Origin: Escherichia coli
Lineage (GTDB): Bacteria; Pseudomonadota; Gammaproteobacteria; Enterobacterales; Enterobacteriaceae
Reading direction: 5' to 3' (one strand)
Assembly (NCBI RefSeq): GCF_048403405.1
Contig: NZ_CP183129.1
DNA length: 64,000 nucleotides
The notes below the pieces were generated by a model. It worked only from the letters and a program-made list of their open reading frames with translations, had not been told where the DNA came from and made no database searches. Made by a program: the position numbers and the translations under genes. Every line of letters begins with the position of its first letter. Positions within the stretch are counted from its first letter, which is position 1. Below, piece by piece: positions 17,146 to 33,589 of this stretch.

Positions 17146-18360
17146 ATGAAGATCGTAAAGGCTGAAGTTTTTGTTACCTGTCCGGGGCGTAATTTCGTCA
17201 CATTAAAAATCACCACTGAGGACGGTATTACGGGCCTTGGGGATGCCACCCTCAATGGACGTGAGCTTTCCGTGGCCTCTTATTTGCAGGATCACCTTTG
17301 TCCGCAGCTTATTGGTCGCGATGCACACCGTATCGAAGATATCTGGCAGTTTTTCTATAAAGGAGCTTACTGGCGTCGCGGCCCGGTGACGATGTCGGCC
17401 ATTTCAGCGGTTGATATGGCGCTGTGGGATATTAAAGCCAAAGCTGCCAACATGCCGCTTTACCAGTTACTCGGCGGCGCGTCTCGTGAAGGGGTGATGG
17501 TTTATTGCCATACCACCGGTCACAGTATTGATGAAGCTCTGGATGATTATGCTCGTCATCAGGAGCTGGGATTCAAAGCCATCCGCGTGCAGTGCGGAAT
17601 CCCTGGTATGAAAACCACCTACGGCATGTCGAAAGGTAAAGGTCTGGCTTATGAACCCGCAACCAAAGGACAGTGGCCGGAAGAGCAGCTGTGGTCGACG
17701 GAGAAATACCTCGATTTCATGCCGAAATTGTTTGACGCGGTACGTAACAAGTTTGGTTTTAATGAACATTTGCTGCATGACATGCACCATCGCTTAACGC
17801 CTATTGAAGCGGCGCGCTTTGGTAAAAGCATTGAAGATTATCGCATGTTCTGGATGGAAGACCCGACGCCTGCGGAAAACCAGGAATGCTTCCGTCTCAT
17901 TCGCCAACATACCGTCACACCCATCGCGGTGGGTGAAGTCTTCAACAGCATCTGGGACTGCAAGCAACTGATTGAAGAGCAACTTATCGATTATATCCGC
18001 ACCACGCTGACCCATGCAGGCGGAATTACCGGTATGCGCCGGATTGCCGATTTTGCTTCGTTGTATCAGGTACGTACTGGCTCACACGGTCCTTCCGATT
18101 TGTCACCAGTCTGCATGGCTGCGGCGCTGCACTTTGATCTGTGGGTCCCCAATTTCGGTGTTCAGGAGTACATGGGTTATTCCGAACAAATGCTTGAAGT
18201 CTTCCCGCACAACTGGACTTTCGATAACGGCTATATGCATCCGGGAGACAAACCGGGTCTTGGCATCGAATTCGATGAAAAGCTGGCGGCGAAATATCCC
18301 TATGAACCTGCTTATCTGCCAGTCGCACGTCTGGAAGATGGCACGCTGTGGAACTGGTAA
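17146..18360 (+). CDS. rspA: starvation-sensing protein RspA (enolase superfamily, mannonate dehydratase-like)
   Basis: 404 aa from [22 protein letters not shown]; enolase-superfamily fold. Confidence 0.9.
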
Positions 18361-18371
18361 GGAGTAAGATA

Positions 18372-19391
18372 ATGAAAAGCATTTTAATTGAAAAACCGAA
18401 TCAACTGGCAATTATCGAACGCGAAATACCCACCCCGTCAGCGGATGAAGTACGAGTAAAAGTGAAACTTGCCGGAATTTGTGGTTCGGATAGCCATATT
18501 TATCGTGGGCATAATCCTTTTGCGAAATATCCGCGCGTCATTGGTCATGAATTCTTTGGCGTCATTGATGCAGTGGGTGAAGGCGTGGAAAGCGCCAGAG
18601 TCGGTGAACGCGTTGCTGTCGATCCGGTGGTCAGCTGTGGGCATTGCTATCCGTGCTCTATAGGTAAGCCGAACGTTTGTACAACACTGGCTGTATTAGG
18701 TGTGCACGCTGACGGTGGTTTCAGTGAATATGCCGTGGTTCCGGCAAAAAATGCGTGGAAAATTCCTGAAGCAGTGGCCGATCAATATGCGGTGATGATC
18801 GAACCTTTTACCATTGCGGCGAACGTAACCGGTCATGGTCAACCGACTGAAAATGATACCGTTCTGGTTTACGGTGCCGGTCCAATCGGCCTGACGATCG
18901 TTCAGGTATTAAAAGGCGTCTATAACGTTAAAAATGTGATTGTTGCCGATCGCATTGATGAACGACTGGAAAAAGCGAAAGAGAGCGGGGCTGACTGGGC
19001 GATTAATAACAGCCAGACACCGCTTGGCGAGATTTTCGCTGAAAAAGGCATAAAGCCGACATTAATTATCGATGCGGCTTGCCATCCTTCAATCCTGAAA
19101 GAAGCCGTAACGCTGGCTTCTCCGGCGGCACGTATTGTATTGATGGGCTTCTCCAGTGAACCGTCTGAAGTGATTCAGCAAGGAATTACCGGAAAAGAAC
19201 TCTCTATTTTCTCTTCACGCTTAAATGCAAATAAATTCCCGGTCGTTATCGACTGGTTAAGTAAAGGGTTAATTAAACCAGAAAAATTAATTACCCATAC
19301 GTTTGATTTCCAGCATGTTGCTGATGCCATTAGTTTATTTGAACAGGATCAAAAACATTGCTGCAAAGTCTTACTCACTTTTTCTGAATAA
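18372..19391 (+). CDS. rspB: Zn-dependent alcohol dehydrogenase-family oxidoreductase RspB
   Basis: 339 aa; GHEFFG Zn-ADH motif and GAGPIG Rossmann motif; overlaps the rspA stop. Confidence 0.9.
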   Translation: MKSILIEKPNQLAIIEREIPTPSADEVRVKVKLAGICGSDSHIYRGHNPFAKYPRVIGHEFFGVIDAVGEGVESARVGERVAVDPVVSCGHCYPCSIGKPNVCTTLAVLGVHADGGFSEYAVVPAKNAWKIPEAVADQYAVMIEPFTIAANVTGHGQPTENDTVLVYGAGPIGLTIVQVLKGVYNVKNVIVADRIDERLEKAKESGADWAINNSQTPLGEIFAEKGIKPTLIIDAACHPSILKEAVTLASPAARIVLMGFSSEPSEVIQQGITGKELSIFSSRLNANKFPVVIDWLSKGLIKPEKLITHTFDFQHVADAISLFEQDQKHCCKVLLTFSE

Positions 19392-19448
19392 TACCAATAA
19401 CGGCGAGTAAGTAGTACGCATCTTACCTCTTTTTTAGAGATAACCATT

Positions 19449-19556
19449 ATGACAATAGAAAAACACGAAAGAAGCACTAAGGATTTGGTGAAAGCAGCAG
19501 TATCGGGATGGCTGGGCACAGCGCTTGAATTTATGGATTTCAAGAGTCATGCGTGT
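19449..19556 (+). pseudogene. ydfJ: 5' fragment of an MHS-family transporter gene interrupted by prophage insertion
   Basis: ATG at 19449 encodes MTIEKHERSTKDLVKAAVSGWLGTALEFMDF (metabolite:H+ symporter N-terminal G-x-x-LE-F/W-x-DF motif), then the frame ends within a few codons next to the integrase gene. Confidence 0.55.
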
Positions 19557-19578
19557 TAACTGTTTGATAAATATTAAA

Positions 19579-20874
19579 TTAATTTTTCATTGCTTCGTTA
19601 TGGGGCATGGTTGGGGCAAACTCGCTTAACTGTGTATTTAACAAAGCTACCTGTGCATTATTGTTTTCAGACATCCATTTTCCGTATACCTGAAATACCA
19701 TTTGCGCATCTGCATGGCCCATCTGGTTTGCTATAAATGCCGGGTTAGCACCAGCTGTCAGCGACCAGCAGGCATAAGTATGTCTCGACTGATATGATTT
19801 TCGATGGCGGAGTCCGGCACGTTTTATCGCTGCGTCCCACATCTGCCTTATTGAGTCAACGGTAAAATGGTCACCATAATTTTTTACTCTCGCTGACACT
19901 TCAGGTTGAAAAACAAAGGTGCATTTTTGTTTTTCTGTTCTGCCATACTCTCTGAGGTGAACATCAATGATATGCTCTTTGCTCAGTCTCGTTAATGTCA
20001 TCTGACTCCGGAGAGCGTCGATTGCTGGCTTAATAAGATGAATGACCCGATTGGTTCCCGCCTGTGTTTTTGGTACCGTGAAACGGTCTTTTGCTAAATT
20101 TCTCCTGATCATCATTGTTCCATTTTTCAGATCTATGTCCTCCCATCCAAGTGCACACAGCTCACCAGGGCGAACGCCAGTATAAACAGAAACACACCAT
20201 AAATTTTTGGCTTGCTGATTTCTGCACGCATCGATAAGACGGATGAATTCCTCCCGCGAAAGAGGATCCGGAATGGTTCTTGATTCCTTTAATGGCGAGA
20301 TCCCCTTAAACGGATTATCTGCCAGGTAACCGTTATCAACACCAAACTGGAACACGGCGTTAAGATTTGTCATGTAATTATTTACAGTTACAGCCGATCT
20401 CCCTGGTTGTGTAACAATATAGTTACTTTTGGGGATCTGGTATCCAGTCAGTAGCTCTTTACGAACCTCCAGTAATTTTTCTTTATTAATCGATGAGGCA
20501 AGATTTTTTTCACCGATTATGCTCAGGATATTTTTGATGACGGCACGGTATGTGTTGAGTGATGTTTTGGCGACTTCAGTTTCTTTCAGTGCCAGAAATT
20601 TTTCAGCCAGTTCTTTTATGGTTAAATCTTGTCGGGCCTCACCAAATTTTTCCAGATTGCGTGAGGAGGGAAACTGTTTTGCATAGTCGAAAACACCAGT
20701 TTTTATTGCGTAACAAACAGAGGAGCGTAGTTCACCTGCAACGCGCCTGTTTTTTGCTGTGTCAGGAACCCCCAGATTTTCCCTGACTCTTACGCCTTTA
20801 TAAACAAACCAGATACGTAATTTCCCTCCATGGTTTTCCACGCCTGTCGGATATTTCATTTCAACTTCTCTCAT
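19579..20874 (-). CDS. phage integrase (tyrosine recombinase)
   Basis: 431 aa; C-terminal catalytic region with RHTYACWSLTAGANPAFIANQMGHADAQMVFQVYGKW (R..H..Y signature). Confidence 0.88.
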   Translation of the reverse strand: MREVEMKYPTGVENHGGKLRIWFVYKGVRVRENLGVPDTAKNRRVAGELRSSVCYAIKTGVFDYAKQFPSSRNLEKFGEARQDLTIKELAEKFLALKETEVAKTSLNTYRAVIKNILSIIGEKNLASSINKEKLLEVRKELLTGYQIPKSNYIVTQPGRSAVTVNNYMTNLNAVFQFGVDNGYLADNPFKGISPLKESRTIPDPLSREEFIRLIDACRNQQAKNLWCVSVYTGVRPGELCALGWEDIDLKNGTMMIRRNLAKDRFTVPKTQAGTNRVIHLIKPAIDALRSQMTLTRLSKEHIIDVHLREYGRTEKQKCTFVFQPEVSARVKNYGDHFTVDSIRQMWDAAIKRAGLRHRKSYQSRHTYACWSLTAGANPAFIANQMGHADAQMVFQVYGKWMSENNNAQVALLNTQLSEFAPTMPHNEAMKN

Positions 20875-20893
20875 TAGTTAGTGTGGCTTTTAG

Positions 20894-21145
20894 TCAAGTA
20901 AGATGACGTCTTGGTCTCGCTGATGCCTGGCGCTCAATCCAGCGATCAATTTCTTCCAGGTTGTAAAAGCATGGACTGTTATCCCATGGCATACCGTCAT
21001 GAGCGACATGCTTATATTCCCTTCCTTCCATAAACGATTTTTCCCGGGCCTTTTTTAACGTACCTTTTTTTATTCCTTTCAGCGCAATTAACTGCTCTTC
21101 GGATACCCATTTGCCGGGAGAGACAATCATGATTACTTCGCTCAT
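20894..21145 (-). CDS. excisionase-like small DNA-binding protein
   Basis: 83-aa ORF immediately upstream of the integrase on the same strand; basic HTH-like core. Confidence 0.55.
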   Translation of the reverse strand: MSEVIMIVSPGKWVSEEQLIALKGIKKGTLKKAREKSFMEGREYKHVAHDGMPWDNSPCFYNLEEIDRWIERQASARPRRHLT

Positions 21146-21217
21146 CGATTTCTTTATCTCTTACATCAGACGAGCGCCGGTTGCAGAATACCAGTCACAA
21201 CCGGCGACAGTTGAACA

Positions 21218-23689
21218 TTAAGAATCAGCCTGACTCGGGATCAGTTTTTGCCAGATAACTGAAACGTATTTTGCCTGGTAACGGGCGTCATCAAGTGCAT
21301 TATGGCGCTCACCTTCGAATGGAATAGCCGTTCTGGCATCGAAGTCTATGGCTTTCCCCAGCTCAACGATTGTGCGTACATCGCGATCGTTGTAGTAACG
21401 CCACGGGCAGGGGATCCCCTGCCGTTCGTATGAACGGCGCAAAATCGTGTTGTCGAAGTTGGCTCCATTTCCCCAAACCTGAACAAAAAATTCACCGGAG
21501 TTTTCGTCGATAAATTCCCGCAATTGTAACAGTGCATCATCTAACGGGATTTCATCGGTCATAATGGCAGATTGCGCTTCGCGTGATTGCTTAAGCCACC
21601 ATTTAATGGTGTCCCGATCAATGACTCCGCCAGCAGTTTCCAGATCGATAGTCTTACTAAATTCCGGTCCCATATCTCCGGTTTGCGGATCGAAAAATAT
21701 TGCACCTATTGAGATGATCGGGGCATCAGGATTTTTTCCCATGGTTTCAAGGTCGATCATTAGATGGTCACACGTCCTGCTGGTGGATGTGATTTCGTGA
21801 TGACCGTTCACCTTAATTGGGTGATCTGCCGTCTCGCCAGTTTCATTATCGCTATTGTGATGCTGATTGCCGCCAGTGTTCTCCTTGTGTGGATGTTCAG
21901 CGCCTTCCATTTCCTCCGGATCATCTTCCTGAACTTCAACCTGATACTCTTCATCGAATGTTTCTTGGTATGTTGCGTCGCCCATCACCGCGCCACAATC
22001 AGGGCAGTTGCCGCCGCCGGTCTGACCGCAGGCGGTGCAGGCTTTTTCCACTTCCTGTTGCGCCACTGGTTCAGGCTGTTTCGTTTCTGGCTCGTTTTGT
22101 AACGCATTTGGACTGTTTTGTTCCGCTTTTTGGTAGTTCCGTTCCGATTCATGCTGGTTCTGGTTCACAGAATCGCGGGTCTGGATCCCCTTAACCCATT
22201 TCGGATCATTCGGGTCACTAATCCCTTCAACAAATTCACCACGTGATGCAGCAAGCAACTTATCGGCGTCAGGCTGGCTGATATTGGCTGCCTGCATAAT
22301 TTTGTTTACTTCGTCAGCGGTAACTTTTATCGGCTCTGGTTGTTCTGAATCTTCAGCGGTATCTACATTTTGCGGTAAGCCCGTGTATGTGCCATTTTTT
22401 CGGGCAAAATATTCTTCTTTTGTGATTTCAGTGGCGCCAGCAGCCAGTGCCTTATCCAGACCAGAAAGTTTGTTTGCGCGACCGTATTTTTCTCCGTCCT
22501 TATCTGCGAAGAGGAAATAGAACGGCCCCTCACGCTCTACAGATGGTTCAGTTTCCGGCGCGGTTTCATTTTTTGGGATATCAGATACCTCAGTTTCCAC
22601 TGCATCAGTTTGTGTTTCTGATGACTGGAGAACAGCAACAGTGCCCAGGTCTGTTTCTTCATTCTCAAACACGCCCTTTGTCGTCAGGTATTCGCAGATA
22701 TATTTGTTCAGTGCTACGGGATCTTTGTGAATGTCGATCGGACGCTCACGGACAAGGCCAAAAATAGTTTGGCGGTCGTAGCGAAGGGCATCAGGCTGTT
22801 TGCGTATTGATGCCGAGATACGCTTCCAGTCTTCGCGGTCGTTGTCGATAACTTCTTTTTTTGCCCAGCGATGGATGCTGCCGTCAATGTTTCCGGCATC
22901 CACATCACCAGGCCAGAGAGCGTAGGCCAGTTCGTCATCCAGTGTTTTCCATGTCTGCTTGTATTCGCGATGAATGGCAGCAATGACCGAGCTGATTTTT
23001 CCTGTTGAATTTTCAGTGTACTGTTGATTGGCTCTGGCGCGGGCGAGATCAACAACAGACGTGTATTTTCCGGTTTCCTTGCGTTCACCTTCGCGACGTT
23101 TTTTCCAGATGCGCATCTCTGCCTGAATTTCGGGCCATTTAGCACCAGGAATACATTTATGCTTAACCCACCCAATGGCGTGCAACTTAAGCTCCGGATA
23201 CATGGCGTTAACTTCTGGCATTTTCATCAACGCTTCAACGATATGTCCGTCGAATGTTGCCATGTCTTCCTGCAACAATTCCTGTGCGCTAATAACCATA
23301 TCAACGGTGATGTTTTCACATGTGTCGAACTTAACCATGACAGCGTTCTGTACTTCAGGGGCCAGCTTGTCAAAAGTGACGTTCATCGGATCGGATTCAG
23401 TCTCAACCGGGACAAAAGAAGCAGACTCCTCATCCCAGCGGTTTTCCTGCATATATTCAGCATCCCATGAATCGAGGGCAGGGCGGGGTATGCCAGGTTT
23501 ATCCTCGCAGACAATAAATTTATAAGCGCAGTCCTGAGCAGCCGGATAATGTTCCAGGAATTGCCAGTGAAATTTTGCTCGAGCACGGCGTTCGTCGCCA
23601 GCTTCAATGGCTGTGGCTACAGCCACAGCGCCTTCTTCCCTTGTTGCCAGTTCGTCAGGAATAGCGGCGCAAATAAAGACTTTACTCAT
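21218..23689 (-). CDS. large early protein with C-terminal DnaQ-like DEDDh 3'-5' exonuclease domain (full-length counterpart of the truncated K-12 ydfE)
   Basis: 823 aa; C-terminal motifs MIDLETMG (Exo I), WGNGANFDNTIL (Exo II), HNALDDARYQAKYV (Exo III); central acidic low-complexity region and a CxxC...CxxC zinc ribbon (ACTACGQTGGGNCPDCG). Confidence 0.7.
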   Translation of the reverse strand: MSKVFICAAIPDELATREEGAVAVATAIEAGDERRARAKFHWQFLEHYPAAQDCAYKFIVCEDKPGIPRPALDSWDAEYMQENRWDEESASFVPVETESDPMNVTFDKLAPEVQNAVMVKFDTCENITVDMVISAQELLQEDMATFDGHIVEALMKMPEVNAMYPELKLHAIGWVKHKCIPGAKWPEIQAEMRIWKKRREGERKETGKYTSVVDLARARANQQYTENSTGKISSVIAAIHREYKQTWKTLDDELAYALWPGDVDAGNIDGSIHRWAKKEVIDNDREDWKRISASIRKQPDALRYDRQTIFGLVRERPIDIHKDPVALNKYICEYLTTKGVFENEETDLGTVAVLQSSETQTDAVETEVSDIPKNETAPETEPSVEREGPFYFLFADKDGEKYGRANKLSGLDKALAAGATEITKEEYFARKNGTYTGLPQNVDTAEDSEQPEPIKVTADEVNKIMQAANISQPDADKLLAASRGEFVEGISDPNDPKWVKGIQTRDSVNQNQHESERNYQKAEQNSPNALQNEPETKQPEPVAQQEVEKACTACGQTGGGNCPDCGAVMGDATYQETFDEEYQVEVQEDDPEEMEGAEHPHKENTGGNQHHNSDNETGETADHPIKVNGHHEITSTSRTCDHLMIDLETMGKNPDAPIISIGAIFFDPQTGDMGPEFSKTIDLETAGGVIDRDTIKWWLKQSREAQSAIMTDEIPLDDALLQLREFIDENSGEFFVQVWGNGANFDNTILRRSYERQGIPCPWRYYNDRDVRTIVELGKAIDFDARTAIPFEGERHNALDDARYQAKYVSVIWQKLIPSQADS

Positions 23690-23782
23690 TTTGTTTTAAC
23701 CTCATGACAGATTTAAGGATGAACAAATCCCTGCCATTGCTGGAATATAAGAATGAAACCGGATATTTATTACGGAACTGTT

Positions 23783-23974
23783 TTAAAGACCTGCCGGGAT
23801 TTCGATATTATCCTGGTGAATAACTTTATCGACCGGGTAACAGTTACCGGGAATTTTCTGTTCGGTTGCTGCAGTCATACACTCCTGCATTGTCCTGTGA
23901 ACACTGACTGCAATATCAACTGGCACTCCGGAAACAAGAAAAACTGTCAGAACAAGCGCAAATGCTGAATTCAT
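23783..23974 (-). CDS. ydfD: small membrane-targeted lysis/toxic protein
   Basis: 63 aa from MNSAFALVLTVFLVSGVPVDIAVSVH..., N-terminal hydrophobic segment; directly downstream of dicB. Confidence 0.7.
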   Translation of the reverse strand: MNSAFALVLTVFLVSGVPVDIAVSVHRTMQECMTAATEQKIPGNCYPVDKVIHQDNIEIPAGL

Positions 23975-24159
23975 TGTGCACATCCTTTTGGCATCAGACG
24001 TAAACGAGCCAGCATTGAAACAATGCATATTTTATTTAATAGCTCCCGTTCTTGTTTTCTCTTGTTAATGGCATCTTCAGTAAATACAGGGTTACTGATA
24101 GTGACACCAATTTCAAAACAACCTTCAGACGTATTAACGTTTGGTAATAACGTTTTCAT
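23971..24159 (-). CDS. dicB: cell-division inhibitor DicB (MinC-dependent FtsZ-ring inhibitor)
   Basis: 62 aa, MKTLLPNVNTSEGCFEIGVTISNPVFTEDAINKRKQERELLNKICIVSMLARLRLMPKGCAQ; immediately downstream of dicF. Confidence 0.8.
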   Translation of the reverse strand: MKTLLPNVNTSEGCFEIGVTISNPVFTEDAINKRKQERELLNKICIVSMLARLRLMPKGCAQ

Positions 24160-24333
24160 TATCGCGTCCTCAACAATGAATTTTGTGATGCAGTGCCTGG
24201 TGCCTCCAGGTGACGTTAACCAGTTAACAATTAACGTCGGATACAGAGAATCCACCCATAACACTGTTTTTGGTTTTAACTGTTCCGCGTGCGCTTAGCC
24301 GCATTCACCGCATCACAAAATTCACTTTAAAAA

Positions 24334-24386
24334 CGGCGGCAGAGCAGTCACGGAGTAAAACTGATACCGCCAAACGTCACCAGAAA
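24334..24386 (-). ncRNA. dicF: DicF small regulatory RNA (antisense inhibitor of ftsZ mRNA)
   Basis: Minus strand reads ...UUUCUGGUGACGUUUGGCGGUAUCAGUUUUACUCCGUGACUGCUCUGCCGCCG followed by a U tract, matching my recollection of the 53-nt DicF sequence except at the last two bases. Confidence 0.8.
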
Positions 24387-24663
24387 ATTGATAACAGAGG
24401 GCGTTGCAGCGGGGTTGTCACTTAAGCGTATGGTCAACCTGACAACTCGGTGTCCTCAACGGGGAAGGAATAACCCCGCCATACTTACCGCCGCGCCATT
24501 TTGCGGGTTGCCACAACCGGAAGCGCACGGTCGAATTAAATTTAACGACACCGTACAGTGAGACGAACTTCGCCGTGCGCTTTCGTGTTGTGTGCCTGCT
24601 TTTAACCACGTCAGGCGAGGTGGTATCCTTAAAATCACCACAGTTTTAAGGATTCATTAAGCA

Positions 24664-24984
24664 ATGTCGCAACCACCAATAAATCCGCTTAAGAACATGA
24701 AAATTGATTACTGGTATAAAGCGCTTACAGTTGTTGGCGCTGCGTTGTTTGTCTTTAATGGAACGTCTTTTTTTGACAGATATCCCGTTGTTCCATTGGG
24801 TTTTTTGTCCTCCGGCATCTTTTTTATTGGTTTGGGGGAGTGGATTAATCACCCTCTCAAAGTGAGATTTATTGGTCCTGGAGTTTGGACTCGTGGATAT
24901 AATCGTTCTTCGTGCGCACTCGGTATCATCTTCGACATACTTGGTTGTTTCCTGATTGTTACAGGAGTCGTCAAGTTCTTCTGA
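24664..24984 (+). CDS. hypothetical small membrane protein (3 predicted TM helices)
   Basis: ATG preceded by AAGGA at -8; hydrophobic segments YKALTVVGAALFVF, GFLSSGIFFIGLGEWI, ALGIIFDILGCFLIVTGVV. Overlaps a long minus-strand ORF, so the assignment is ambiguous. Confidence 0.35.
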   Translation: MSQPPINPLKNMKIDYWYKALTVVGAALFVFNGTSFFDRYPVVPLGFLSSGIFFIGLGEWINHPLKVRFIGPGVWTRGYNRSSCALGIIFDILGCFLIVTGVVKFF

Positions 24985-24989
24985 TGTAA

Positions 24990-25221
24990 AACCGCAAATG
25001 GGGCACGTAACGGGAATTTTGAAAAGCGTTTCTCCGGGTTCCAGAACAAAATTTTCTGCGGTCTGATTTTGCTTCTCATATTTGTGCTCCGCGTCATTGT
25101 GAGAGCACATTCTTATTCTGAGTGCCTGTTTAAACTCACTGAAGCTGAGAGCTTCTTCGCCTTCGGCAAGGCCTTCGAAGTATTCTTCGTAAGCCTTTTC
25201 CATGATTGTGTCGAAATCCAT
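24990..25221 (-). CDS. hypothetical acidic early protein with CxxC motif (ydfB/ydfC position); 3' boundary uncertain
   Basis: N-terminal part of minus ORF 24646..25263: MDFDTIMEKAYEEYFEGLAEGEE...TCPICGF looks protein-like; the remainder of the ORF is antisense to the plus-strand membrane ORF and looks spurious. Confidence 0.3.
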
Positions 25222-25222
25222 A

Positions 25223-25378
25223 TCACTCACCTGAGTTTCTTTCCAGCCAGCGACGGGCACCATTTTCGGTTTTAAACGTTTTGCTTTTGGTATACGTCAT
25301 CGCGGTGAACGTGCCGTCCTGGTTGGGGAACACGCCACATACCAGAGATTCGCTGTTGCCAAGATCGATAGTATCCAT
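25223..25378 (-). CDS. hypothetical small early protein (ydfA-like, 51 aa)
   Basis: Internal Met of ORF 25223..25432: MDTIDLGNSESLVCGVFPNQDGTFTAMTYTKSKTFKTENGARRWLERNSGE; first gene downstream of dicA, as ydfA is in Qin. Confidence 0.4.
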   Translation of the reverse strand: MDTIDLGNSESLVCGVFPNQDGTFTAMTYTKSKTFKTENGARRWLERNSGE

Positions 25379-25491
25379 GCTGACCTCATTTCCCCTTAAC
25401 GCCGGGGTCGCGGAACTGTTTGCTGAGAACACCGTGCGGTGTCTTGATGGAAAGTAATTTAGAATAACCTAACATGAGAGGCAAGTGTTTT

Positions 25492-25511
25492 TTGTTAGAT
25501 TGATCTAACAA
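25492..25511. promoter_or_regulatory. candidate operator (OL-like) - near-perfect palindrome TTGTTAGATTGATCTAACAA
   Basis: 8-bp inverted arms TTGTTAGA/TCTAACAA just downstream of dicA; the TTAGA...TCTAA half-site recurs in the dicA-dicC intergenic region. Confidence 0.5.
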
Positions 25512-25546
25512 AAAGAGTGGGCGCAACTAATCACTTGAAAAGAATG

Positions 25547-25954
25547 TTATTTTATTGATTTATTTTTACGCGCTTTAAGCATTTCTTCGAAGAGTTTGTT
25601 GAAGTTTTCTACTCTTGCGCGCATTTCAGACAGCAAGGCTTCCTGCTCGGAAGATGGAAGAGCATCGAATAATTCGATCAATTCTTTGTGGTTGGGAGTT
25701 AGCTCTGTTTCCACATGAAGTTCTTGTGCAGGCACTGGTGCCTTGTCTTCGTCACCAAACATTAGCCATGTAGGTGAGCACTTCAGAGCATCCGCTAAAG
25801 CAAACAATCGTTTTCCGACTGGCTGGGTTTCGTCTCTTTCCCATTGTGAAATTGTGACGTGAGCAACTCCAGCGAGGCGCGCAGCTTCTCGTTGTGTTAA
25901 GCGTAATTCTTTTCGTCGCGCCAGAACTCGCTGGCCTAGGGTTCTTGTATCCAT
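25547..25954 (-). CDS. dicA: immunity repressor, HTH_XRE family (DicA-like)
   Basis: 135 aa; HTH LTQREAARLAGVAHVTISQWERDETQP; divergent from a Cro-like gene. Confidence 0.75.
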   Translation of the reverse strand: MDTRTLGQRVLARRKELRLTQREAARLAGVAHVTISQWERDETQPVGKRLFALADALKCSPTWLMFGDEDKAPVPAQELHVETELTPNHKELIELFDALPSSEQEALLSEMRARVENFNKLFEEMLKARKNKSIK

Positions 25955-25955
25955 A

Positions 25956-26025
25956 GTTAGGTAATTCTAATTTTTCTTGACTTAGGTATCCCGCGCACAA
26001 TAATGTTAGAAAAGTCTAACAAGAG
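25956..26025. promoter_or_regulatory. divergent promoter/operator region between dicA and dicC (OR-like)
   Basis: Inverted repeats TTAGGTAATTCTAA (25956-25969) and TGTTAGAAAAGTCTAACA (26004-26021) plus a TTGACT -35-like hexamer between the divergent repressor genes. Confidence 0.5.
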
Positions 26026-26034
26026 GGGGCTTTG

Positions 26035-26262
26035 ATGCTTAAAGTTGACGCAATTACTTTTTTTGGCAGCAAAACAAAGCTTGCCAATGCCGCAGGAGTG
26101 AGACTGGCAAGTGTTGCTGCTTGGGGGATACTGGTTCCTGAAGGTCGCGCGATGCGTCTACAGGAGGCATCTGGCGGGGAGCTTCAGTATGATCCCAAAG
26201 TTTATGACGAATATCGTAAGACGAAGCGGGCGGGGCGGTTGAACAATGAAAATCACTCCTGA
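26035..26262 (+). CDS. dicC: Cro-like small HTH regulator (DicC-like)
   Basis: About 76 aa, HTH KTKLANAAGVRLASVAAWG; good RBS (AGAGGGGGC) before the ATG. Confidence 0.7.
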   Translation: MLKVDAITFFGSKTKLANAAGVRLASVAAWGILVPEGRAMRLQEASGGELQYDPKVYDEYRKTKRAGRLNNENHS

Positions 26263-26767
26263 ACAGGCTCGTGAGGCTCTGGATGCCTGGATATGTCGAC
26301 CAGGAATGACACAGGAGCAGGCGACGATATTAATCACTGAAGCATTCTGGGCTTTGAAAGAGCGCCCGAACATCGATGTTCAGCGTGTCACATATGAAGG
26401 TGGCGCGGTTGATCAGCGAGCGCTTAGCGTTAATCGAGTGAAGATATTCGAACGCTGGAAGGCTATCGACACCAGGGATAAGCGTGAAAAGTTCACAGCG
26501 CTAGTGCCTGCAATTATGGAGGCTATCCGGATTAGTGATTTCAGGTTGTATCGTGAGATCAGTGATGGAAAAAGTATTACGTACATGATCGCCGGGTTAA
26601 ATAAAGAATATGGCGATGTGGTGGAATCCGGACTGCTTTTTGCAGATCCTGCCGTTGTAGATCGTGAAACTGACGAACTTATAGAAAAAGCAATTGCTTT
26701 CAAGCTTGCGTATCGACAGCAATACCAACAAAAAGCTGGATGGAATTATGAGTCTTCTTTTTGCTGA
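26246..26767 (+). CDS. hypothetical early protein (cII/YdaT-like position)
   Basis: 173-aa ORF between the cro-like and replication genes; no recognisable catalytic motif. Confidence 0.5.
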   Translation: MKITPEQAREALDAWICRPGMTQEQATILITEAFWALKERPNIDVQRVTYEGGAVDQRALSVNRVKIFERWKAIDTRDKREKFTALVPAIMEAIRISDFRLYREISDGKSITYMIAGLNKEYGDVVESGLLFADPAVVDRETDELIEKAIAFKLAYRQQYQQKAGWNYESSFC

Positions 26768-27713
26768 ACGCCCACTGGTTATAAACACGCAGCTGGCAAT
26801 GAAAATCGGCTTAAACGAAGCCATTGTTTTGCAACAACTGCACTACTGGTTGAGAGATACCAACTCCGGTATGGAATGTGATGGTGTTCGCTGGATTTAT
26901 AACACAACGGAACAATGGCTGGAACAGTTCCCATTCTGGTCAGAGTCAACGTTAAAGCGCGCGTTTGCAAGTCTGAAAACGCTGGGGCTTTTGCGTTGTG
27001 AAAAGCTCAATAAATCAAAGCGCGATATGACCAATTTCTACACGATCAACTATGGGAGCGAGCTTTTAGATGGTGGCAAATTGAACGAATCCATCGGTTC
27101 AAAATGCGCCGCTCCATCAGGTCAAAATGACACGATGGAAGAGGTCAAAATGAAACGCTCCATTGGTTCAAAACGACCCAATGTCATCGGGTCAAAATGG
27201 CCTGATGATCTTACAGAGAATACAACAGAGATTACTACAGAGAATAAAAACACTTTTCGTCCGGAAGCTTCGCAACCGGACCCGCAGACGACTGAACAGG
27301 ATTTTTTAACCCGGAACCCCGACGCGGTTGTGTTTAGTGTGAAAAAACGCCAGTGGGGTAGCAGGGAGGATTTGGCGTGTGCGCAGTGGATTTGGGGGCG
27401 GATCGTGAACCTTTACGAACAGGCTGCCAGCGACGATGGAGAGATCATGCGACCAAAAGAGCCTAACTGGACAGCCTGGGCCAATGACGTGCGCACAATG
27501 CGGATGCTGGATGGCAGAAGCCACAGACAAATTTGCGAAATGTTTGGTCGGGTACAGCGGGATCCATTCTGGGTAAAAAACATCATGAGCCCGTCAAAAC
27601 TCCGCGAAAAATGGGACGAACTGGTCATCCGCCTGGGACGTTCACCTGTACAGCGTTGTGTTAATCATATTTCTGAACCGGATACAGAAATTCCGCCTGG
27701 TTTCAGGGGATAA
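26748..27713 (+). CDS. phage replication initiator / replisome organiser (O-like) with internal origin
   Basis: N-terminal winged-helix-like region; the mid-gene DNA carries five iterons, so the protein shows the periodic IGSK/IGSKW motif. Confidence 0.7.
   Translation: MSLLFAERPLVINTQLAMKIGLNEAIVLQQLHYWLRDTNSGMECDGVRWIYNTTEQWLEQFPFWSESTLKRAFASLKTLGLLRCEKLNKSKRDMTNFYTINYGSELLDGGKLNESIGSKCAAPSGQNDTMEEVKMKRSIGSKRPNVIGSKWPDDLTENTTEITTENKNTFRPEASQPDPQTTEQDFLTRNPDAVVFSVKKRQWGSREDLACAQWIWGRIVNLYEQAASDDGEIMRPKEPNWTAWANDVRTMRMLDGRSHRQICEMFGRVQRDPFWVKNIMSPSKLREKWDELVIRLGRSPVQRCVNHISEPDTEIPPGFRG
27090..27200 (+). repeat. origin iterons: five direct repeats of ~TCGGTTCAAAATG spaced 23-25 bp
   Basis: ATCGGTTCAAAATG (27091), ATCAGGTCAAAATG (27115), GAGGTCAAAATG (27141), ATTGGTTCAAAACG (27162), ATCGGGTCAAAATG (27186), followed by an A+T-rich repeat-containing stretch to about 27270. 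Confidence 0.75.
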
Positions 27714-27753
27714 GTGTTGATTTCAGGTCATGAGATAATTTTAAGGGGGACTT

Positions 27754-28155
27754 GTGGCAAAAGTTTTTACACAAGAAGAGCGGGAAAAAATTAAAGGGCA
27801 GGTTGTTGAACTCGTACGCCGGAGTGGGCGTGAGACGTTACGGCAACTGGAAGTCAAGACAGGTGCGACAAGATATCTGATGAGCGTTCTCGCAAGAGAG
27901 CTGGTTGCCAGCGGCGATGTATACAACTCTGGTTACGGGTTATTCCCGTCTGAACAGGCGCGTAAGGACTGGCAAAATGCCCGTAAAAAGCTCTCAAGGG
28001 CAAAGCTGAAGAAACCATCTGCGGTTGATCCGGACCTTATCTGGTCATTACCTGACGGAGAAATACGTCGCTACGACAGGCGTCAGAACATAATCTGCCG
28101 CGAGTGCCGGAAGAGTGAAGTTATGCAGCGCATACTGGCATTTTATCAGGGATAA
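27754..28155 (+). CDS. hypothetical protein
   Basis: 133-aa ORF with RBS; basic, contains CRECRK; immediately upstream of the AT-rich island. Confidence 0.45.
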   Translation: MAKVFTQEEREKIKGQVVELVRRSGRETLRQLEVKTGATRYLMSVLARELVASGDVYNSGYGLFPSEQARKDWQNARKKLSRAKLKKPSAVDPDLIWSLPDGEIRRYDRRQNIICRECRKSEVMQRILAFYQG

Positions 28156-28636
28156 TGTTAGGTATTTTAGACGTTACTAGATTAAAAAGCATTAGTTCAG
28201 GAGTGAATTGACATTCTCATTTTTCATGGCACAGGGTAGATCTGGCGTGGTTGTCCGCTTTGTGCCAACAGCGGACGTTACTAACGAAACTGTGAGTTAA
28301 AAACGGGAGCTGGTCACCTCCATCCCGCGAAATGGAATTCAAAAATGCCCTCATGTACGGTACTTCTAGTCTGATGTGAGCATTTTCGTGGATTTTTTCG
28401 AGCCACTCCAACGAATGATTACATTCAGTTTCGGGCACTAAAACGTCATAAATCCGCAAGTTGAGGAGTAGCGATCAGCCAATTGGTTAAAAAACAGCTT
28501 TAATTCCCTTTTTCAAGCAGGCTCCTTGTCGCACGTCTGGTGCATCCAATTCATTTCAGTTACCCTGATGCCATACTGGCACGGACTAGCTCTCTTAATT
28601 GGCGCTGGTTTGTTAACCTTGTCCGCTGTCGGGTCT

Positions 28637-28667
28637 TTGTAAGTTGTAATTCCTAAACTAGCATAAT
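28637..28667 (+). promoter_or_regulatory. candidate sigma70 promoter for the RelA/SpoT-domain gene
   Basis: TTGTAA (28637-28642), 19-bp spacer, CATAAT (28662-28667), about 20 bp upstream of the ATG at 28689. Confidence 0.35.
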
Positions 28668-28688
28668 TTTATTATAAGGCCTCTTACT

Positions 28689-29714
28689 ATGCACATTTTA
28701 TCTGTTTCAAAAAAGGAAGTTGGAAGAGCTGGGGATAGATTAGTTTCTCAGTTTGGTACAGGTGAAAAATATAAAGAGGAAGATGTACAAATTCTTCATG
28801 AGTGGAGGATGTTGCATTTATATCCTTTAAGTAAAATACAATTTTATATGGAAAGAGAGGCTATTTCCTTAAACAAAAATGCGTTACTATCCTCTAGAAT
28901 TAAGAGGATGCCTTCCATTGTTACTAAGCTTTCTAGATTTCCTGATATGAAGTTAAATAAGATGCAGGATCTTGGTGGGTGCCGGGCTATTTTAAATAAT
29001 CTGGATCAAGTGTATGATTTAGTTAATAAAATAAAATCATCTAAATTCTCACATGAACTAGTTAGAATGGATGATTACATGATAGACGTGAAAGATTCTG
29101 GTTATAGAAGCTTTCATATGGTCTATTCATTCCAAAATAAAAAATTTCCATCTTTAAATGGGTTGCGCATTGAAATGCAAATAAGAACAGCTATTCAACA
29201 TAGCTGGGCTACAGCAGTTGAAATGGTTGGTTTGTTTCGAAAGGAATCATTGAAATCTGGTTTTGGTGATGCAAGATGGCTTAGGTTTTTTGAATTGGTA
29301 TCAGAGCTTTTTTATAAACTTGAGTATGAAAAAGAACCATCTGGGAGTTATATAAAAATATCAGAAGAATTAAGTTATTTATCCGTCGAGTTGAATGTTT
29401 TCGATATATTAGCTGCTTACAATGCCGTAGTTAGCCATATTGAGGGTAGCAAAAAATATGATAAAGGACTTTGCATAATTGTTGTTGATACCATAAAGCG
29501 GAATATAAATATAAAGAGCTTCGAAAATCACAATCATGCGAAGGCGGCAGAAGCTTATGTCGAGTCTGAAAAATACTGCGCGGAAAATAAAGGCTGTGAA
29601 GTGGCTATGGTTTCTGTTAGTTCAATTAGTGAATTAAAAAATGCATATCCTGCTTACTTTTTAGATACGAAAACTTTTTTAAATTATCTCAGTAGGTATG
29701 TTTTTATAAAATAA
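28689..29714 (+). CDS. RelA/SpoT-domain nucleotidyltransferase (small-alarmone-synthetase / toxSAS-like) with uncharacterised C-terminal domain
   Basis: 341 aa. All synthetase-fold motifs present in order: RIKRMPSIVTK, DLGGCRAIL, YRSFHMVY, EMQIRTAIQHSWATAVE. C-terminal ~150 aa unrecognised. The gene lies in a conspicuously AT-rich island. Confidence 0.8.
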   Translation: MHILSVSKKEVGRAGDRLVSQFGTGEKYKEEDVQILHEWRMLHLYPLSKIQFYMEREAISLNKNALLSSRIKRMPSIVTKLSRFPDMKLNKMQDLGGCRAILNNLDQVYDLVNKIKSSKFSHELVRMDDYMIDVKDSGYRSFHMVYSFQNKKFPSLNGLRIEMQIRTAIQHSWATAVEMVGLFRKESLKSGFGDARWLRFFELVSELFYKLEYEKEPSGSYIKISEELSYLSVELNVFDILAAYNAVVSHIEGSKKYDKGLCIIVVDTIKRNINIKSFENHNHAKAAEAYVESEKYCAENKGCEVAMVSVSSISELKNAYPAYFLDTKTFLNYLSRYVFIK

Positions 29715-30448
29715 AAAATGTTATCTGGAGTGGTCTGAATTCTACTAACTTAGTTTTTTCAGACCGCTTCTGACCACAATGGCCTGTGAGGTTCTGCTGC
29801 TAGTCAACATAAAATAACAAAGCCGGCAGGTGGTGGTTGTTGTAAAGTTATTCAATGACATTCATGGAGGCTTAAGCGAATTATTTGTCCCTGGTCGGTA
29901 TGGTGGCAACAGCTTGTTGCGAGAATTTGGCTAATTTGGACTGACTTCCGCTCCTTGCTCAAAGCGGACTAGAAGGTTAGCTTGTGTCGGACTTTGCGTA
30001 TTAAAAGAAGTGCTGGTGGTGACTAGTGGTTGAGCCCCATTTCCACAGAAAAAATCAGAGAAACTATACCCAATAGTTGTATTGAATCACTGACGAGACA
30101 GCCTCATATTCATCAGGACTGGTGTACGTCCAATACAGGAGGTTGTGGTGCTGGTTCTCAAATGTGCGCTGGCTATTACGGCTGTAATGGCGATTTATTG
30201 TCTTGCTATTGTTCTTATGGATCGCCTTTCTGACTGATTTCATATTGGCGAGGTAAAGGTAGTTAAGTAGAATGGCTGCGGGTGCTTGAGGCTATCTGCC
30301 TCGGGCATGAACACCAAAGGCAGATAGAGAAAAGCCCCAGTTAACATTACGCGTCCTGCAAGACGCTTAACATTAATCTGAGGCCAATTTCATGCTAGAC
30401 ACATGTAGGTTAGCCTCTTACGTGCCGGAAGGCAAGGAGAAGCAGGCT

Positions 30449-30604
30449 ATGAAGCAGCAAAAGGCGATGTTAATCGCCCTGATCGTCATCTGTTTAACCG
30501 TCATAGTGACGGCACTGGTAACGAGGAAAGACCTCTGCGAGGTACGAATCCGAACCGGCCAGACGGAGGTCGCTGTCTTCACAGCTTACGAACCTGAGGA
30601 GTAA
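30449..30604 (+). CDS. hokD: Hok/Gef-family membrane toxin (type I toxin)
   Basis: 51 aa, MKQQKAMLIALIVICLTVIVTALVTRKDLCEVRIRTGQTEVAVFTAYEPEE; embedded in a longer mok-like upstream ORF (30392..). Confidence 0.85.
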   Translation: MKQQKAMLIALIVICLTVIVTALVTRKDLCEVRIRTGQTEVAVFTAYEPEE

Positions 30605-30672
30605 GAGACCCGGCGAGGGAGAAATCCCTCGCCACCTCTGATGTGGCAGGCATCCTCAACGCACCCGCACTT

Positions 30673-30699
30673 AACCCGCTTCGGCGGGTTTTTGTTTTT
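30673..30699 (+). terminator. intrinsic terminator downstream of hok
   Basis: AACCCGCTTCGGCGGGTT hairpin followed by TTTTGTTTTT. Confidence 0.7.
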
Positions 30700-30820
30700 A
30701 TTTTCAACGCGTTTGAAGTTCTGGACGGTGCCGGAATAGAATCAAAAATACTTAAGTAGCGCGCAGGGATAAGAGGGATGGTCCCTTAAAGGGGAGAGCT
30801 AATTATCCGGAAGAATTCTG

Positions 30821-31072
30821 ATGATGAACATCGAAGAACTGCGTAAAATTTTTTGTGAAGATGGCCTCTATGCTGTGTGCGTTGAAAATGGAAATCTTGT
30901 TAGTCATTACCGCATTATGTGTTTGCGAAAGAATGGGGCTGCGTTAATTAATTTTGTGGATGGTCGAGTGACAGACGGATTTATCTTGCGCGAAGGTGAG
31001 TTTGTCACTTCATTACAGGCACTGAAAGAGATCGGAATAAAAGCAGGCTTTTCAGCTTTTGCAGAAGAATAA
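30821..31072 (+). CDS. hypothetical 83-aa protein (position and length of Qin rem)
   Basis: 83-aa ORF with RBS; between hok and the DUF968 gene, as rem is in Qin. Confidence 0.5.
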   Translation: MMNIEELRKIFCEDGLYAVCVENGNLVSHYRIMCLRKNGAALINFVDGRVTDGFILREGEFVTSLQALKEIGIKAGFSAFAEE

Positions 31073-31138
31073 ACTCATCTACAATCTTGCGCGGGGCTGA
31101 ACTCCCGCTGAGTAACACCGTGCCACCGGAGAAAACCG

Positions 31139-31417
31139 ATGGCACGCAACGTAAAATATTACAATTCTGATAATTCGCCCGTTCTTGCCTGCACGCACGG
31201 GCGGTATTCTCACGCATTCAAGTCTGAATGGTTCCAGCACCCTCCATGCACTGCAGAACAGGCCGAATGGCTGATTCATTCTTACCGCAGGCGCGGGTTC
31301 GAGGTTAAGAAAGCTCTCAGTCTCGACTATCGGCACTGGATAATCTCTGTCAGGCTGCCTTATTCCGAACGCCCACCACGTGCGTCCCGCACTTTCCAGC
31401 AACGGATCTGGAGGTAA
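31139..31417 (+). CDS. hypothetical protein
   Basis: 92-aa ORF with GGAG RBS; its stop abuts the GTG start of the next gene. Confidence 0.5.
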   Translation: MARNVKYYNSDNSPVLACTHGRYSHAFKSEWFQHPPCTAEQAEWLIHSYRRRGFEVKKALSLDYRHWIISVRLPYSERPPRASRTFQQRIWR

Positions 31418-31418
31418 C

Positions 31419-32468
31419 GTGCGGGTATTACTTAGACCTGTTCTGGTGCCTGAGCTTGGGCTGGTGGTCCTTAAGCCGGGCCGTGAATCCATACAGATAT
31501 TTCATAATCCTCGAGTGCTGGTGGAACCGGAACCAAAAAGCATGCGTAATCTGCCATCCGGAGTCGTTCCTGCCGTTCGCCAGCCGCTGGCGGAAGACAA
31601 AACATTGCTGCCGTTTTTTAGTAACGAACGGGTGATTCGTGCTGCTGGCGGCGTTGGCGCATTGTCTGACTGGCTATTACGTCATGTTACATCCTGCCAG
31701 TGGCCTAATGGCGATTACCATCACACTGAAACAGTCATTCACCGTTATGGTACCGGCGCAATGGTGTTGTGCTGGCACTGCGACAACCAACTGCGTGACC
31801 AGACATCGGAATCACTGGAGCTGCTTGCTCAACAAAATCTGACAGCATGGGTGATTGACGTCATCCGTCACGCAATAAGCGGTACGCAGGAGCGGGAATT
31901 ATCTTTGGCTGAATTATCCTGGTGGGCGGTCTGCAATCAGGTGGTGGATGCACTACCTGAGGCTGTATCGCGTCGTTCGCTGGGATTACCAGCGGAAAAA
32001 ATCTGCTCGGTGTACCGCGAAAGCGACATCGTACCGGGAGAGCAGACCGCCACCAGCATATTGAAACAACGCACAAAAAATCTTGCACCGTTGCCTTACG
32101 CCCACCAGCAACAAAAACCACCACAGGAAAAGACGGTGGTAAGCATCAACGTTGATCCAGAGTCTCCGGAATCTTTCATGAAGCTGCCTAAACGTCGCCG
32201 CTGGGTTAAGGAGAAATACACTCGTTGGGTTAAGACACAGCCGTGTGCTTGCTGCGGTATGCCAGCCGACGATCCGCATCATCTGATTGGTCACGGGCAG
32301 GGCGGAATGGGAACAAAAGCACATGATCTCTTTGTGTTGCCTTTGTGCAGAAAGCATCACAACGAGCTGCATACGGATACAGTGGCATTTGAAGAGAAGT
32401 ATGGCTCCCAACTGGAGCTGATATTTCGTTTTATCGATCGCGCGCTGGCAACTGGCGTACTGGCGTAA
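31419..32468 (+). CDS. DUF968-family protein with HNH-like motif (YdfU-like)
   Basis: 349 aa from a GTG start with GGAGG RBS; C-terminal CACCGMPADDPHHLIGHG...CRKHHNELH Zn/HNH-like motif; located just upstream of Q. Confidence 0.7.
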   Translation: MRVLLRPVLVPELGLVVLKPGRESIQIFHNPRVLVEPEPKSMRNLPSGVVPAVRQPLAEDKTLLPFFSNERVIRAAGGVGALSDWLLRHVTSCQWPNGDYHHTETVIHRYGTGAMVLCWHCDNQLRDQTSESLELLAQQNLTAWVIDVIRHAISGTQERELSLAELSWWAVCNQVVDALPEAVSRRSLGLPAEKICSVYRESDIVPGEQTATSILKQRTKNLAPLPYAHQQQKPPQEKTVVSINVDPESPESFMKLPKRRRWVKEKYTRWVKTQPCACCGMPADDPHHLIGHGQGGMGTKAHDLFVLPLCRKHHNELHTDTVAFEEKYGSQLELIFRFIDRALATGVLA

Positions 32469-32481
32469 GTGGAGAACGAGC

Positions 32482-33234: not shown

Positions 33235-33341
33235 ATGATTTTTGCTGAAGATGGCGACATGATGTTTGCATTTTTCAAAAAACATGGATAAGATTTTCTC
33301 AACGATGGGCTTTGTGTATCCGACGTTTAGAAAAAAGTAGA

Positions 33342-33367
33342 AAACCCGCTTATAAGCGGGTTTTTGT
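33342..33367 (+). terminator. intrinsic terminator (tR'-like) about 110 bp downstream of Q
   Basis: AAACCCGCT-TATA-AGCGGGTTT hairpin plus T tract. Confidence 0.6.
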
Positions 33368-33404
33368 GCTTTAAATGGGGCAATAGAGATATTGAATCTC
33401 ATCC

Positions 33405-33589
33405 CGGGATAAACATTGGCAGTTGAAGGTCCACGCGAACCATTTATCCGGCAAAATTCCACGCGTAATCCTGTGGTAATTTCTTCTGCATCTCGAAGAT
33501 TGAGAGCTGAAACGTGAAGCTGGGCATCGATACGCCATCGGATGGGAATATAAGACCTTTGCTGCTTTTGTAGTCAAAGTTTTTGACAA
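33405..33589 (-). pseudogene. degraded cold-shock protein gene (cspF-like remnant)
   Basis: Minus-strand frame encodes ...[42 protein letters not shown] (Csp C-terminal half) but the N-terminus is in another frame and no stop follows the expected end. Confidence 0.5.

Follow-up and report, generated by a model that had tools for sequence, protein, structure and literature searches.

In the lambda layout, host DNA is followed by the core, the P' arm, and int-xis. The 5' end of ydfJ is the site-specific insertion target of Qin, whose integration removes the promoter and 28 codons of the gene (PMC6379469). A related phage, mEp460_ev081, is described as a functional temperate phage carrying dicB, dicF, and rem (bioRxiv 10.1101/2023.04.14.536235). 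Prophages at ydfJ in STEC (PPydfJ) were described by Nakamura et al. (2021, PMC8112680), and an 18/19-bp att of ydfJ prophages has already been defined there from attP, attL, attR, and attB (S7 Fig legend).

We analyzed a 64-kb stretch of Escherichia coli DNA, called here the window, and we conclude that positions 19526-19544 are almost certainly the attL (B-O-P') left by lambda-style integration of a Qin/mEp460-type phage into ydfJ codons 27 to 32. The junction shares its host target, core, and phage-side flank with Qin of K-12 (98.9% identity over 187 bp); its attL is identical to that of Qin but for SNPs, and the int family is the same. The two elements also have in common dicB/DicF, hokD/sok, cspB/cspI, and pinQ. 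Thus, the original prediction of a Qin-type element held, both from the K-12 identity, which includes the phage side, and from the DicF, sok, csp leader, and pinQ content. In contrast, Qin of K-12 is a ∼20.5-kb remnant with an int truncated by IS2, whereas the window element is ∼45 kb long, with int and xis intact and a complete structural gene set. The integration locus is shared with the PPydfJ prophages of STEC as well, but those are often clustered and carry loci for T3SS effectors or sites of the attB-in-prophage kind; nothing of this sort was seen beside the window junction. With lambda attL (BOP') the window shares the order of host DNA, core, P' arm, and int plus xis reading toward the core, a short common core for the exchange, an integrase whose arm-binding domain is separate, and an excisionase. 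Lambda, however, uses an intergenic gal-bio target with another core, whereas the window target is intragenic, in ydfJ; unlike lambda, the window has an arm-binding domain of the Arm-DNA-bind_2 family, a P' arm that overlaps the int coding sequence, and arm sites that are predicted. The features of the locus are collected in Table 1.

Table 1. Features at and around the ydfJ junction (window coordinates)
Feature	Coordinates	Strand	Remark
rspB, Zn-dependent oxidoreductase	18348..19391	+	Host gene directly upstream of ydfJ, same orientation
ydfJ 5' fragment, codons 1-31 (MHS-family MFS transporter YdfJ)	19449..19541	+	
Chimeric 36-codon ORF: 31 ydfJ codons, phage-derived KSHAC, stop	19449..19559	+	
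attL common core TGAATTTATGGATTTCAAG	19526..19544	.	Four-way attB/attP/attL/attR comparison
TTATGGATTTC, 11-bp perfect block	19531..19541	.	Longest stretch with no attB/attP difference
Qin/mEp460-type lambdoid prophage body	19542..64000	.	Extends past the right end of the window
P' arm, phage DNA	19542..19670	.	Contiguous with attP in HannyBb, mEp460_ev081, and PhiR42_1
Tyrosine integrase, intQ-type, full length	19579..20874	-	Pfam
Two TGGGGCA repeats (19601-19607, 19612-19618)	19601..19618	+	11 bp start to start
Core-like sequence no. 2, ACCTGTGCATTATTGTTTTCA, inside int	19649..19669	+	18/21 match
Excisionase, DUF1233 family	20894..21145	-	Pfam PF06806, 1.6e-31
DicF sRNA gene, Qin hallmark	24334..24385	-	Rfam RF00039, 72.5 bits, E 4.8e-14
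pinQ-type serine invertase, near the prophage right end	62882..63472	-	Pfam Resolvase and HTH_7

The host side of the junction was resolved by comparison with Ec42, a strain free of the prophage, in which ydfJ is uninterrupted and 455 codons long. Window positions 19292-19544 are 99.2% identical in nucleotide sequence to rspB-ydfJ of Ec42, and the homology ends at 19541/19544. The short ORF that follows rspB translates as MTIEKHERSTKDLVKAAVSGWLGTALEFMDFKSHAC followed by a stop codon, and YdfJ of Ec42 begins with MTIEKHERSTKDLVKAAVSGWLGTALEFMDFQLYSLGAALVF; since the two products agree at their start, exactly 31 ydfJ codons are left, the last base being 19541. The original prediction of about 31 N-terminal codons of an MHS transporter before the integrase was therefore confirmed. 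The protein sequence of these codons is identical to the first residues of the transporter annotated in RefSeq as "MHS family MFS transporter YdfJ", and the full-length YdfJ matches Pfam MFS_1 (2.7e-37) and Sugar_tr (5.7e-25). In genomes with an identical junction, RefSeq carries no annotated feature over the 36-codon ORF, and rspB is annotated at the matching relative position in Ec42, AR_0128, K-12, 19KM2415N, and 4621. No tRNA or tmRNA was found by scanning, and the att site is thus not of the tRNA type. A promoter and terminator scan of 19000-21400 gave counts that were not above those of shuffled sequences, and no plus-strand terminator was found from rspB to int in the same scan. The rspAB-ydfJ-ydfI cluster may be an L-gulonate pathway; a search of the available literature on this point returned nothing usable on the physiological substrate.

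We then compared attB from Ec42, attP from HannyBb, mEp460_ev081, and PhiR42_1, attL from the window, and attR from relatives and K-12. In the relatives, attR was located by blastn and a regular expression, with SNPs and a 1-bp indel present. The consensus core of the four sites is TGAATT(T)ATGGATTTC(A/C)AG, which is 18 bp long in attP (within the site acctgTGAATT-ATGGATTTCaag) and 19 bp long in attB (within the site gcgctTGAATTTATGGATTTCcag), in agreement with the published 18/19-bp att (PMC8112680). The original prediction had guessed a core at 19540-19560; its actual position lies 10 to 15 bp further left. At the edges of the core, attB reads TTT...C-CAG, attP TT...C-AAG, attL TTT...AAG, and attR TT...CAG, a pattern that agrees across the window, Ec42, AR_0128, K-12, 19KM2415N, 4621, and the three phage genomes. 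The window attL is accordingly a hybrid, host-type at its left (TTT) and phage-type at its right (A, 19542). Because attL combines the host TTT with the phage A and attR the phage TT with the host C, strand exchange probably took place inside TTATGGATTTC (19531-19541). This block contains ydfJ codons 29 to 31 (ATG GAT TTC), which are therefore found at both attL and attR. On the phage side, the phage genomes begin matching the window at 19526, and the free-phage attP, acctgTGAATTATGGATTTCaagagtcatg, is the source of exactly the phage half of the window attL; the attP junction sequence is acctgTGAATTATGGATTTCaag. In HannyBb, mEp460_ev081, and PhiR42_1, the DNA found right of 19541 is joined directly to what, in a lysogen, is the left flank of attR. 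The left side of the junction thus continues into empty-site ydfJ and the right side into free-phage attP, as expected for the prophage boundary inside ydfJ that had been proposed. Inspection by eye for dyad symmetry near the overlap region revealed only a weak TGAA...TTCA, in attP.

These comparisons point to a mechanism in which the phage tyrosine integrase, encoded on the minus strand 38 bp past the junction, synapsed attP with the host attB and exchanged strands within the shared block. Codons 1 to 31 of ydfJ and the rspAB-side promoter region stayed at attL, and the part of ydfJ that starts at codon 29 would have moved with ydfI to attR, ∼45 kb away and just past the window. The split ydfJ is probably non-functional, because the promoter and half of the first transmembrane helix were lost. 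Since the core falls within coding DNA, excision by Int and Xis would rebuild ydfJ without error and rejoin rspAB-ydfJ-ydfI. The prophage can probably still excise in this way, which would give back the wild-type gene exactly.

The longest int ORF encodes 431 amino acids, and its RefSeq relatives begin at a Met five codons in, giving 426 amino acids. Int contains Arm-DNA-bind_2 (1.6e-23) and Phage_integrase (4e-18) domains and differs by 0 to 3 residues from Int of 19KM2415N, HannyBb, PhiR42_1, and mEp460_ev081 (one residue for HannyBb). Among solved structures, Tn1549 Int is the nearest to it; an alignment of the two shows the RHT and GH...Y motifs, and a Tyr stands in box II at the position of the conserved His of Tn1549 Int. 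Xis is identical to HannyBb Xis, and int-xis is 99.3 to 99.6% identical in four phage records (HannyBb, PhiR42_1, Tritos, and mEp460_ev081). From 19579 onward, the P' arm and the 3' end of int occupy the same DNA. The two TGGGGCA repeats in this arm are candidate arm-type integrase binding sites: TGGG[GA]CA occurs in 8 copies in the 45.3-kb HannyBb genome, 4 of the 8 are no more than 135 bp away from the attP core, and these four form one same-orientation pair per arm. The proposal draws on motif clustering; the available att arms are nearly identical, and their conservation is therefore uninformative. Further into int, ACCTGTGCATTATTGTTTTCA resembles the attP core extended by the phage flank on its left; it has one match in the window, and none of 100 shuffles gave any. 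We considered whether the junction might be a reversible switch (active lysogeny) toggling a sugar-acid uptake/catabolism cluster, with 19649-19669 as a secondary Int site modulating the switch, and we regard this as very improbable. The idea of a switch and a secondary site comes from site geometry and the 18/21 sequence match.

Blastn of the ydfJ 3' part and ydfI across the whole 64-kb window matched the 5' fragment alone, in line with the prediction that the rest of ydfJ lies beyond the right end. The prophage is collinear with HannyBb, a viable isolated phage, over 38.9 of 44.5 kb, continuing to base 64000, which corresponds to HannyBb position 23276; the HannyBb attP core is at 24078. In strain 4621, where the chromosomal flank is 100% identical to that of the window and a single 44-kb prophage is followed by ydfJ'-ydfI, base 64000 corresponds to position 43770 of the locus (L010), with the core of attR following at 44572. 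Extrapolation from both alignments puts the predicted attR near 64,802, ∼0.8 kb (∼802 bp) past the window end. It should read acctgTGAATTATGGATTTCcag, followed by ydfJ codons 29 to 455 and then ydfI, within the predicted sequence ...aaaaaacacctgTGAATTATGGATTTCcagttatattcgctcgg... In 19KM2415N, 4621, and K-12, attR and the rest of ydfJ are indeed present at the other end of the prophage, and in relatives the annotated pinQ is followed by ydfK, ynfT, attR, and ydfJ'. The ∼45-kb element contains terminase, portal, capsid, tail, and lysis modules. Rfam also detected sok and two cspA-type leaders, and the annotation of close relatives lists ydfD, dicB, hokD, rem, ydfU, ydfT, essD, rrrQ, rzpQ, cspI, gnsB, and pinQ. 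Relative to HannyBb, the window prophage has a number of exchanged segments, among them 28.2-30.1 kb, which carries a RelA/SpoT-domain gene, and portions of the tail-fibre region; over the late genes the identity is only 93 to 98%. No prophage in the collection is identical to that of the window (94 to 99.6% by segment), and therefore inactivating mutations elsewhere in it are possible.

Among 5,426 complete E. coli genomes, the junction was found in 2,715, and 2,012 had an uninterrupted attB. The 187-bp stretch matched at at least 95% identity in 4,888 of the 5,426, far above chance. Genomes with an annotated intact ydfJ matched only to query base 150-153, that is, window 19541-19544.

The truncation of ydfJ might instead stem from an event without site specificity that by chance adjoins the prophage, whether deletion, rearrangement by an IS, or illegitimate recombination, in a region where rearrangements do occur, as illustrated by the IS2 insertion and the deletions near int in K-12 Qin. 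However, the breakpoint falls exactly inside the core common to attB and attP, the complementary hybrid attR exists in relatives, the recurrence of an identical junction in 2,715 genomes argues against chance truncation, and the ORF list holds no IS or transposase ORF in 19391-19579. The four-way att comparison effectively refutes such an origin, to which we assign a negligible probability. An attL that is genuine but forms part of a tandem cluster of prophages, or of a chromosome inverted through recombination between prophages, with the 3' part of ydfJ far off or beside another prophage, is unlikely. STEC strains do have ydfJ clusters of 2 to 4 phages and inversions between the ydfJ prophage and those at ompW, ttcA, or dusA (PMC8112680, PMC8767318), and certain O157:H7 genomes contain attB only as the attR-side piece. 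Yet the window remains collinear with a single phage genome to its last base, where only ∼0.8 kb of phage DNA is left, and 4621, with its identical flank, has one prophage directly before ydfJ'-ydfI.

There is a somewhat greater, still minor, chance that the prophage is defective or grounded like K-12 Qin, its attL being a fossil unable to recombine. Most Qin-like prophages carried intQ mutations in a published survey (PMC6379469), the truncated int of K-12 is a precedent, and the box II Tyr replaces the usual His. Against this stand the full-length int and xis, encoding an Int and an Xis that match those of HannyBb but for the one Int residue, and the overall collinearity of the ∼45-kb element with HannyBb, all morphogenesis and lysis modules mentioned above included. 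We therefore favor the attL of a full-length, site-specifically integrated Qin/mEp460-type prophage.

The junction is ordinary: the att sequence and the insertion of Qin in ydfJ are already published, and the result has little importance beyond correct annotation and advances no open question. It locates the left edge of a full-length Qin-type prophage with single-base precision, phage DNA starting at 19542, explains the orphan 36-codon ORF after rspB, and predicts the location of the right boundary. Prophages use the ydfJ site heavily, with about half of the complete E. coli genomes or more having it occupied, and in STEC this locus harbors effector-carrying prophage clusters and is a chromosomal inversion end-point (PMC8112680, PMC8767318). 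Recognizing the junction therefore aids prophage delimitation and strain comparison.

The stretch between rspB and the integrase gene (19391-19580) holds a textbook-type attL, and both the prophage family and the locus are well known. Qin has been described to insert site-specifically at the 5' end of ydfJ (PMC6379469), the att sequence of ydfJ prophages has been worked out from attP, attL, attR, and attB (PMC8112680), and "ydfJ" is a routine prophage locus name in STEC genomics (PMC8767318, PMC10132054). The ORF at 19449-19559 (+) translates to MTIEKHERSTKDLVKAAVSGWLGTALEFMDFKSHAC*, and comparison with the annotated intact YdfJ of E. coli Ec42, which starts with MTIEKHERSTKDLVKAAVSGWLGTALEFMDFQLYSLGAALVF..., showed that exactly 31 ydfJ codons are left, where the original prediction had given about 31 N-terminal ones. 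At codon 32, AAG replaces CAG, and the four codons after it, as well as the stop, come from foreign DNA. On the host side, 19292-19544 aligned with the rspB-ydfJ region of Ec42 at 99.2% DNA identity, and DNA comparison across the whole window found no further ydfJ or ydfI sequence.

Features at the left junction and in the prophage (window coordinates)
Feature	Position	Strand	Details
rspB	18348-19391	+	ORF left of 19391-19580
Int, 431-codon ORF	19579-20874	-	ORF right of 19391-19580
TGGGGCA tandem pair, P' arm	19601-19607 and 19612-19618	+	inside int 3' end
Xis	20894-21145	-	DUF1233 excisionase, 1.6e-31
DicF sRNA	24334-24385	-	Rfam
RelA/SpoT-domain protein, 341 aa	28689-29714	+	Pfam 4e-18; PADLOC PDC-S33 5e-119
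sok antitoxin RNA and two cspA-type thermoregulator leaders	30280-30454, 33749-34141, 37205-37621	+	Rfam

The att sites were compared between the empty site of Ec42, the two-ended lysogens 19KM2415N, 4621, and K-12, and phage genomes. Phages HannyBb, PhiR42_1, Tritos, and mEp460_ev081 carry the same int-xis (99.3-99.6% identity), and the homology of all four to the window starts exactly at 19526. Phage-specific DNA starts at 19542, and the four-site alignment moves the core, previously guessed at 19540-19560, 10 to 15 bp to the left. With the AG after a single mismatch counted, the core measures 19 bp in attB and 18 bp in attP, the same length as the "18- or 19-bp att sequence" of the ydfJ prophages of Nakamura et al. 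(PMC8112680, S7 Fig legend).

Core and flanks of the four att sites
Site	Left	Core	Right
attB	gcgct	TGAATTTATGGATTTC	cagttatattc
attP	acctg	TGAATT-ATGGATTTC	aagagtcatgcg
attL, window 19526-19541	gcgct	TGAATTTATGGATTTC	aagagtcatgcg
attR	acctg	TGAATT-ATGGATTTC	cagttatattc

Because attL combines the host-type T-run with the phage-type A and attR shows the opposite combination, strand exchange would be confined to the block identical in attB and attP, TTATGGATTTC (19531-19541). This reciprocal structure rules out a truncation of ydfJ that was not site specific. Codons 29 to 31 of ydfJ (ATG GAT TTC) lie within the core and are repeated at attR, where the RefSeq ydfJ pseudogene starts at the ATG of codon 29, in agreement with the published K-12 ydfJ "lacking 28 codons" (PMC6379469). 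Together, these results confirm the observation of a prophage left junction inside ydfJ and, apart from the small coordinate correction, support its interpretation. Separately, 15 "Stx2a-converting phage" records (LC727844-LC727872) terminate in a copy of the int 3' end with 90-93% identity, which begins 3 bases into the core (query base 10, window 19529). Stx2a prophages with a related integrase thus appear to have been delimited at an att core of this type.

The junction is common. A 187-bp stretch across it had matches in 4,888 of 5,426 complete E. coli genomes; where intact ydfJ is annotated, the match ends at window 19541-19544, and in K-12 derivatives it extends over the full length (98.9%). 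A 100-bp query centered on the junction was covered to at least 80% in 2,715 of the 5,426 genomes and a 110-bp query for intact attB in 2,012, the latter being found in split pieces in most of the remaining genomes. Some E. coli O157:H7 genomes showed the attR-side piece of the attB query alone, at one place per genome, a pattern consistent with the ydfJ prophage clusters and inversions published for this serotype (PMC8112680).

Apart from a circular permutation at attP, the window runs collinear with HannyBb between 19526 and 64000, and 38.9 of 44.5 kb could be aligned at 93-99.6% identity. Window position 64000 corresponds to HannyBb 23276, with the attP core at 24078, and to position 43770 of the E. 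coli 4621 sequence used for comparison, with the attR core at 44572. In strain 4621, a related prophage of 44 kb occupies this site, and then come pinQ, ydfK, ynfT, attR, ydfJ', and ydfI. Both comparisons place the predicted attR at ∼64,802, ∼0.8 kb beyond the window end. The remainder of ydfJ, expected beyond the right end, is not directly visible, but this collinearity supports its presence there well. Tandem clusters or an inversion, both documented at ydfJ in STEC (PMC8767318, PMC10132054), could have placed ydfJ' elsewhere; this is unlikely, since the window prophage is collinear with a single phage genome and a strain with an identical chromosomal flank carries a single prophage.

The assignment to the Qin type is supported by Rfam matches to DicF, sok, and two cspA-type leaders (cspB- and cspI-like genes), a set of accessory RNAs typical of Qin, by a pinQ-type invertase, and by annotated relatives that carry Qin gene names throughout. 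K-12 Qin spans ∼20.5 kb and has an int truncated by IS2, whereas the window element is full length. The RelA/SpoT-domain gene lies in an island of low GC content (0.36-0.41), which the 4621 prophage shares and HannyBb lacks; its product, matching a PADLOC candidate defense family (PDC-S33), is probably an anti-phage moron. The tail fiber genes and pinQ invertase (60987-63472) vary among relatives (83% coverage, with replaced segments), which would be expected of a host-range cassette that can be inverted or exchanged.

In the lambda attL, the order is host, core, P' arm, int, and xis, and the window junction has the same layout. Int contains an Arm DNA-binding domain (PF12167, 1.6e-23) and a catalytic Phage_integrase domain (PF00589, 4e-18). 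It matches the Int of 19KM2415N at every residue, whereas one residue is different in HannyBb, one in PhiR42_1, and three in mEp460_ev081, which has been described as a functional Qin-like temperate phage (bioRxiv 10.1101/2023.04.14.536235). The window and HannyBb have the same Xis. Among solved structures, Tn1549 Int is the closest by sequence, and the RHT and GH...Y motifs of the two integrases align. Tn1549 Int has the conserved first His of box II (H-x-x-R), whereas the window Int has Tyr there, near KSYQSRHTY, a residue presumably tolerated since it also occurs in the Int of the phages. By sequence, int and xis appear intact, and the prophage may still be inducible.

Of the 8 copies of TGGG[GA]CA in the 45.3-kb HannyBb genome, 4 are found no more than 135 bp from the attP core; each arm holds one same-orientation pair with 11-bp spacing, and that of the P arm is TGGGGCAtataTGGGACA. 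We infer that the Arm-DNA-bind_2 integrase may use these pairs as arm-type sites, making them candidates only, since the att arms of all sequences compared are nearly identical and their conservation is therefore uninformative. Also inside the int 3' end, ACCTGTGCATTATTGTTTTCA (19649-19669, +) agrees at 18 of 21 positions with ACCTGTGAATTATGGATTTCA, which comprises the attP core and the left flank on its phage side; in HannyBb, the starts of this sequence and of the attP core are 127 bp apart. The window holds no second match of this kind, and 100 shuffles yielded none. The sequence may represent a secondary Int site or a relic, or have arisen by coincidence.

Over the chromosomal flank (1-19400), E. 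coli 4621, MS 69-1, TUM14771, and others are 100% identical to the window, and the window and 4621 have in common a synonymous A at 19520. Their prophages are only 94-99.6% identical to the window prophage, depending on the segment, and no genome in the collection carried the whole prophage at >99.4% identity. An identical flank next to divergent prophages suggests that Qin-like prophages within a lineage have undergone mosaic exchange with one another.
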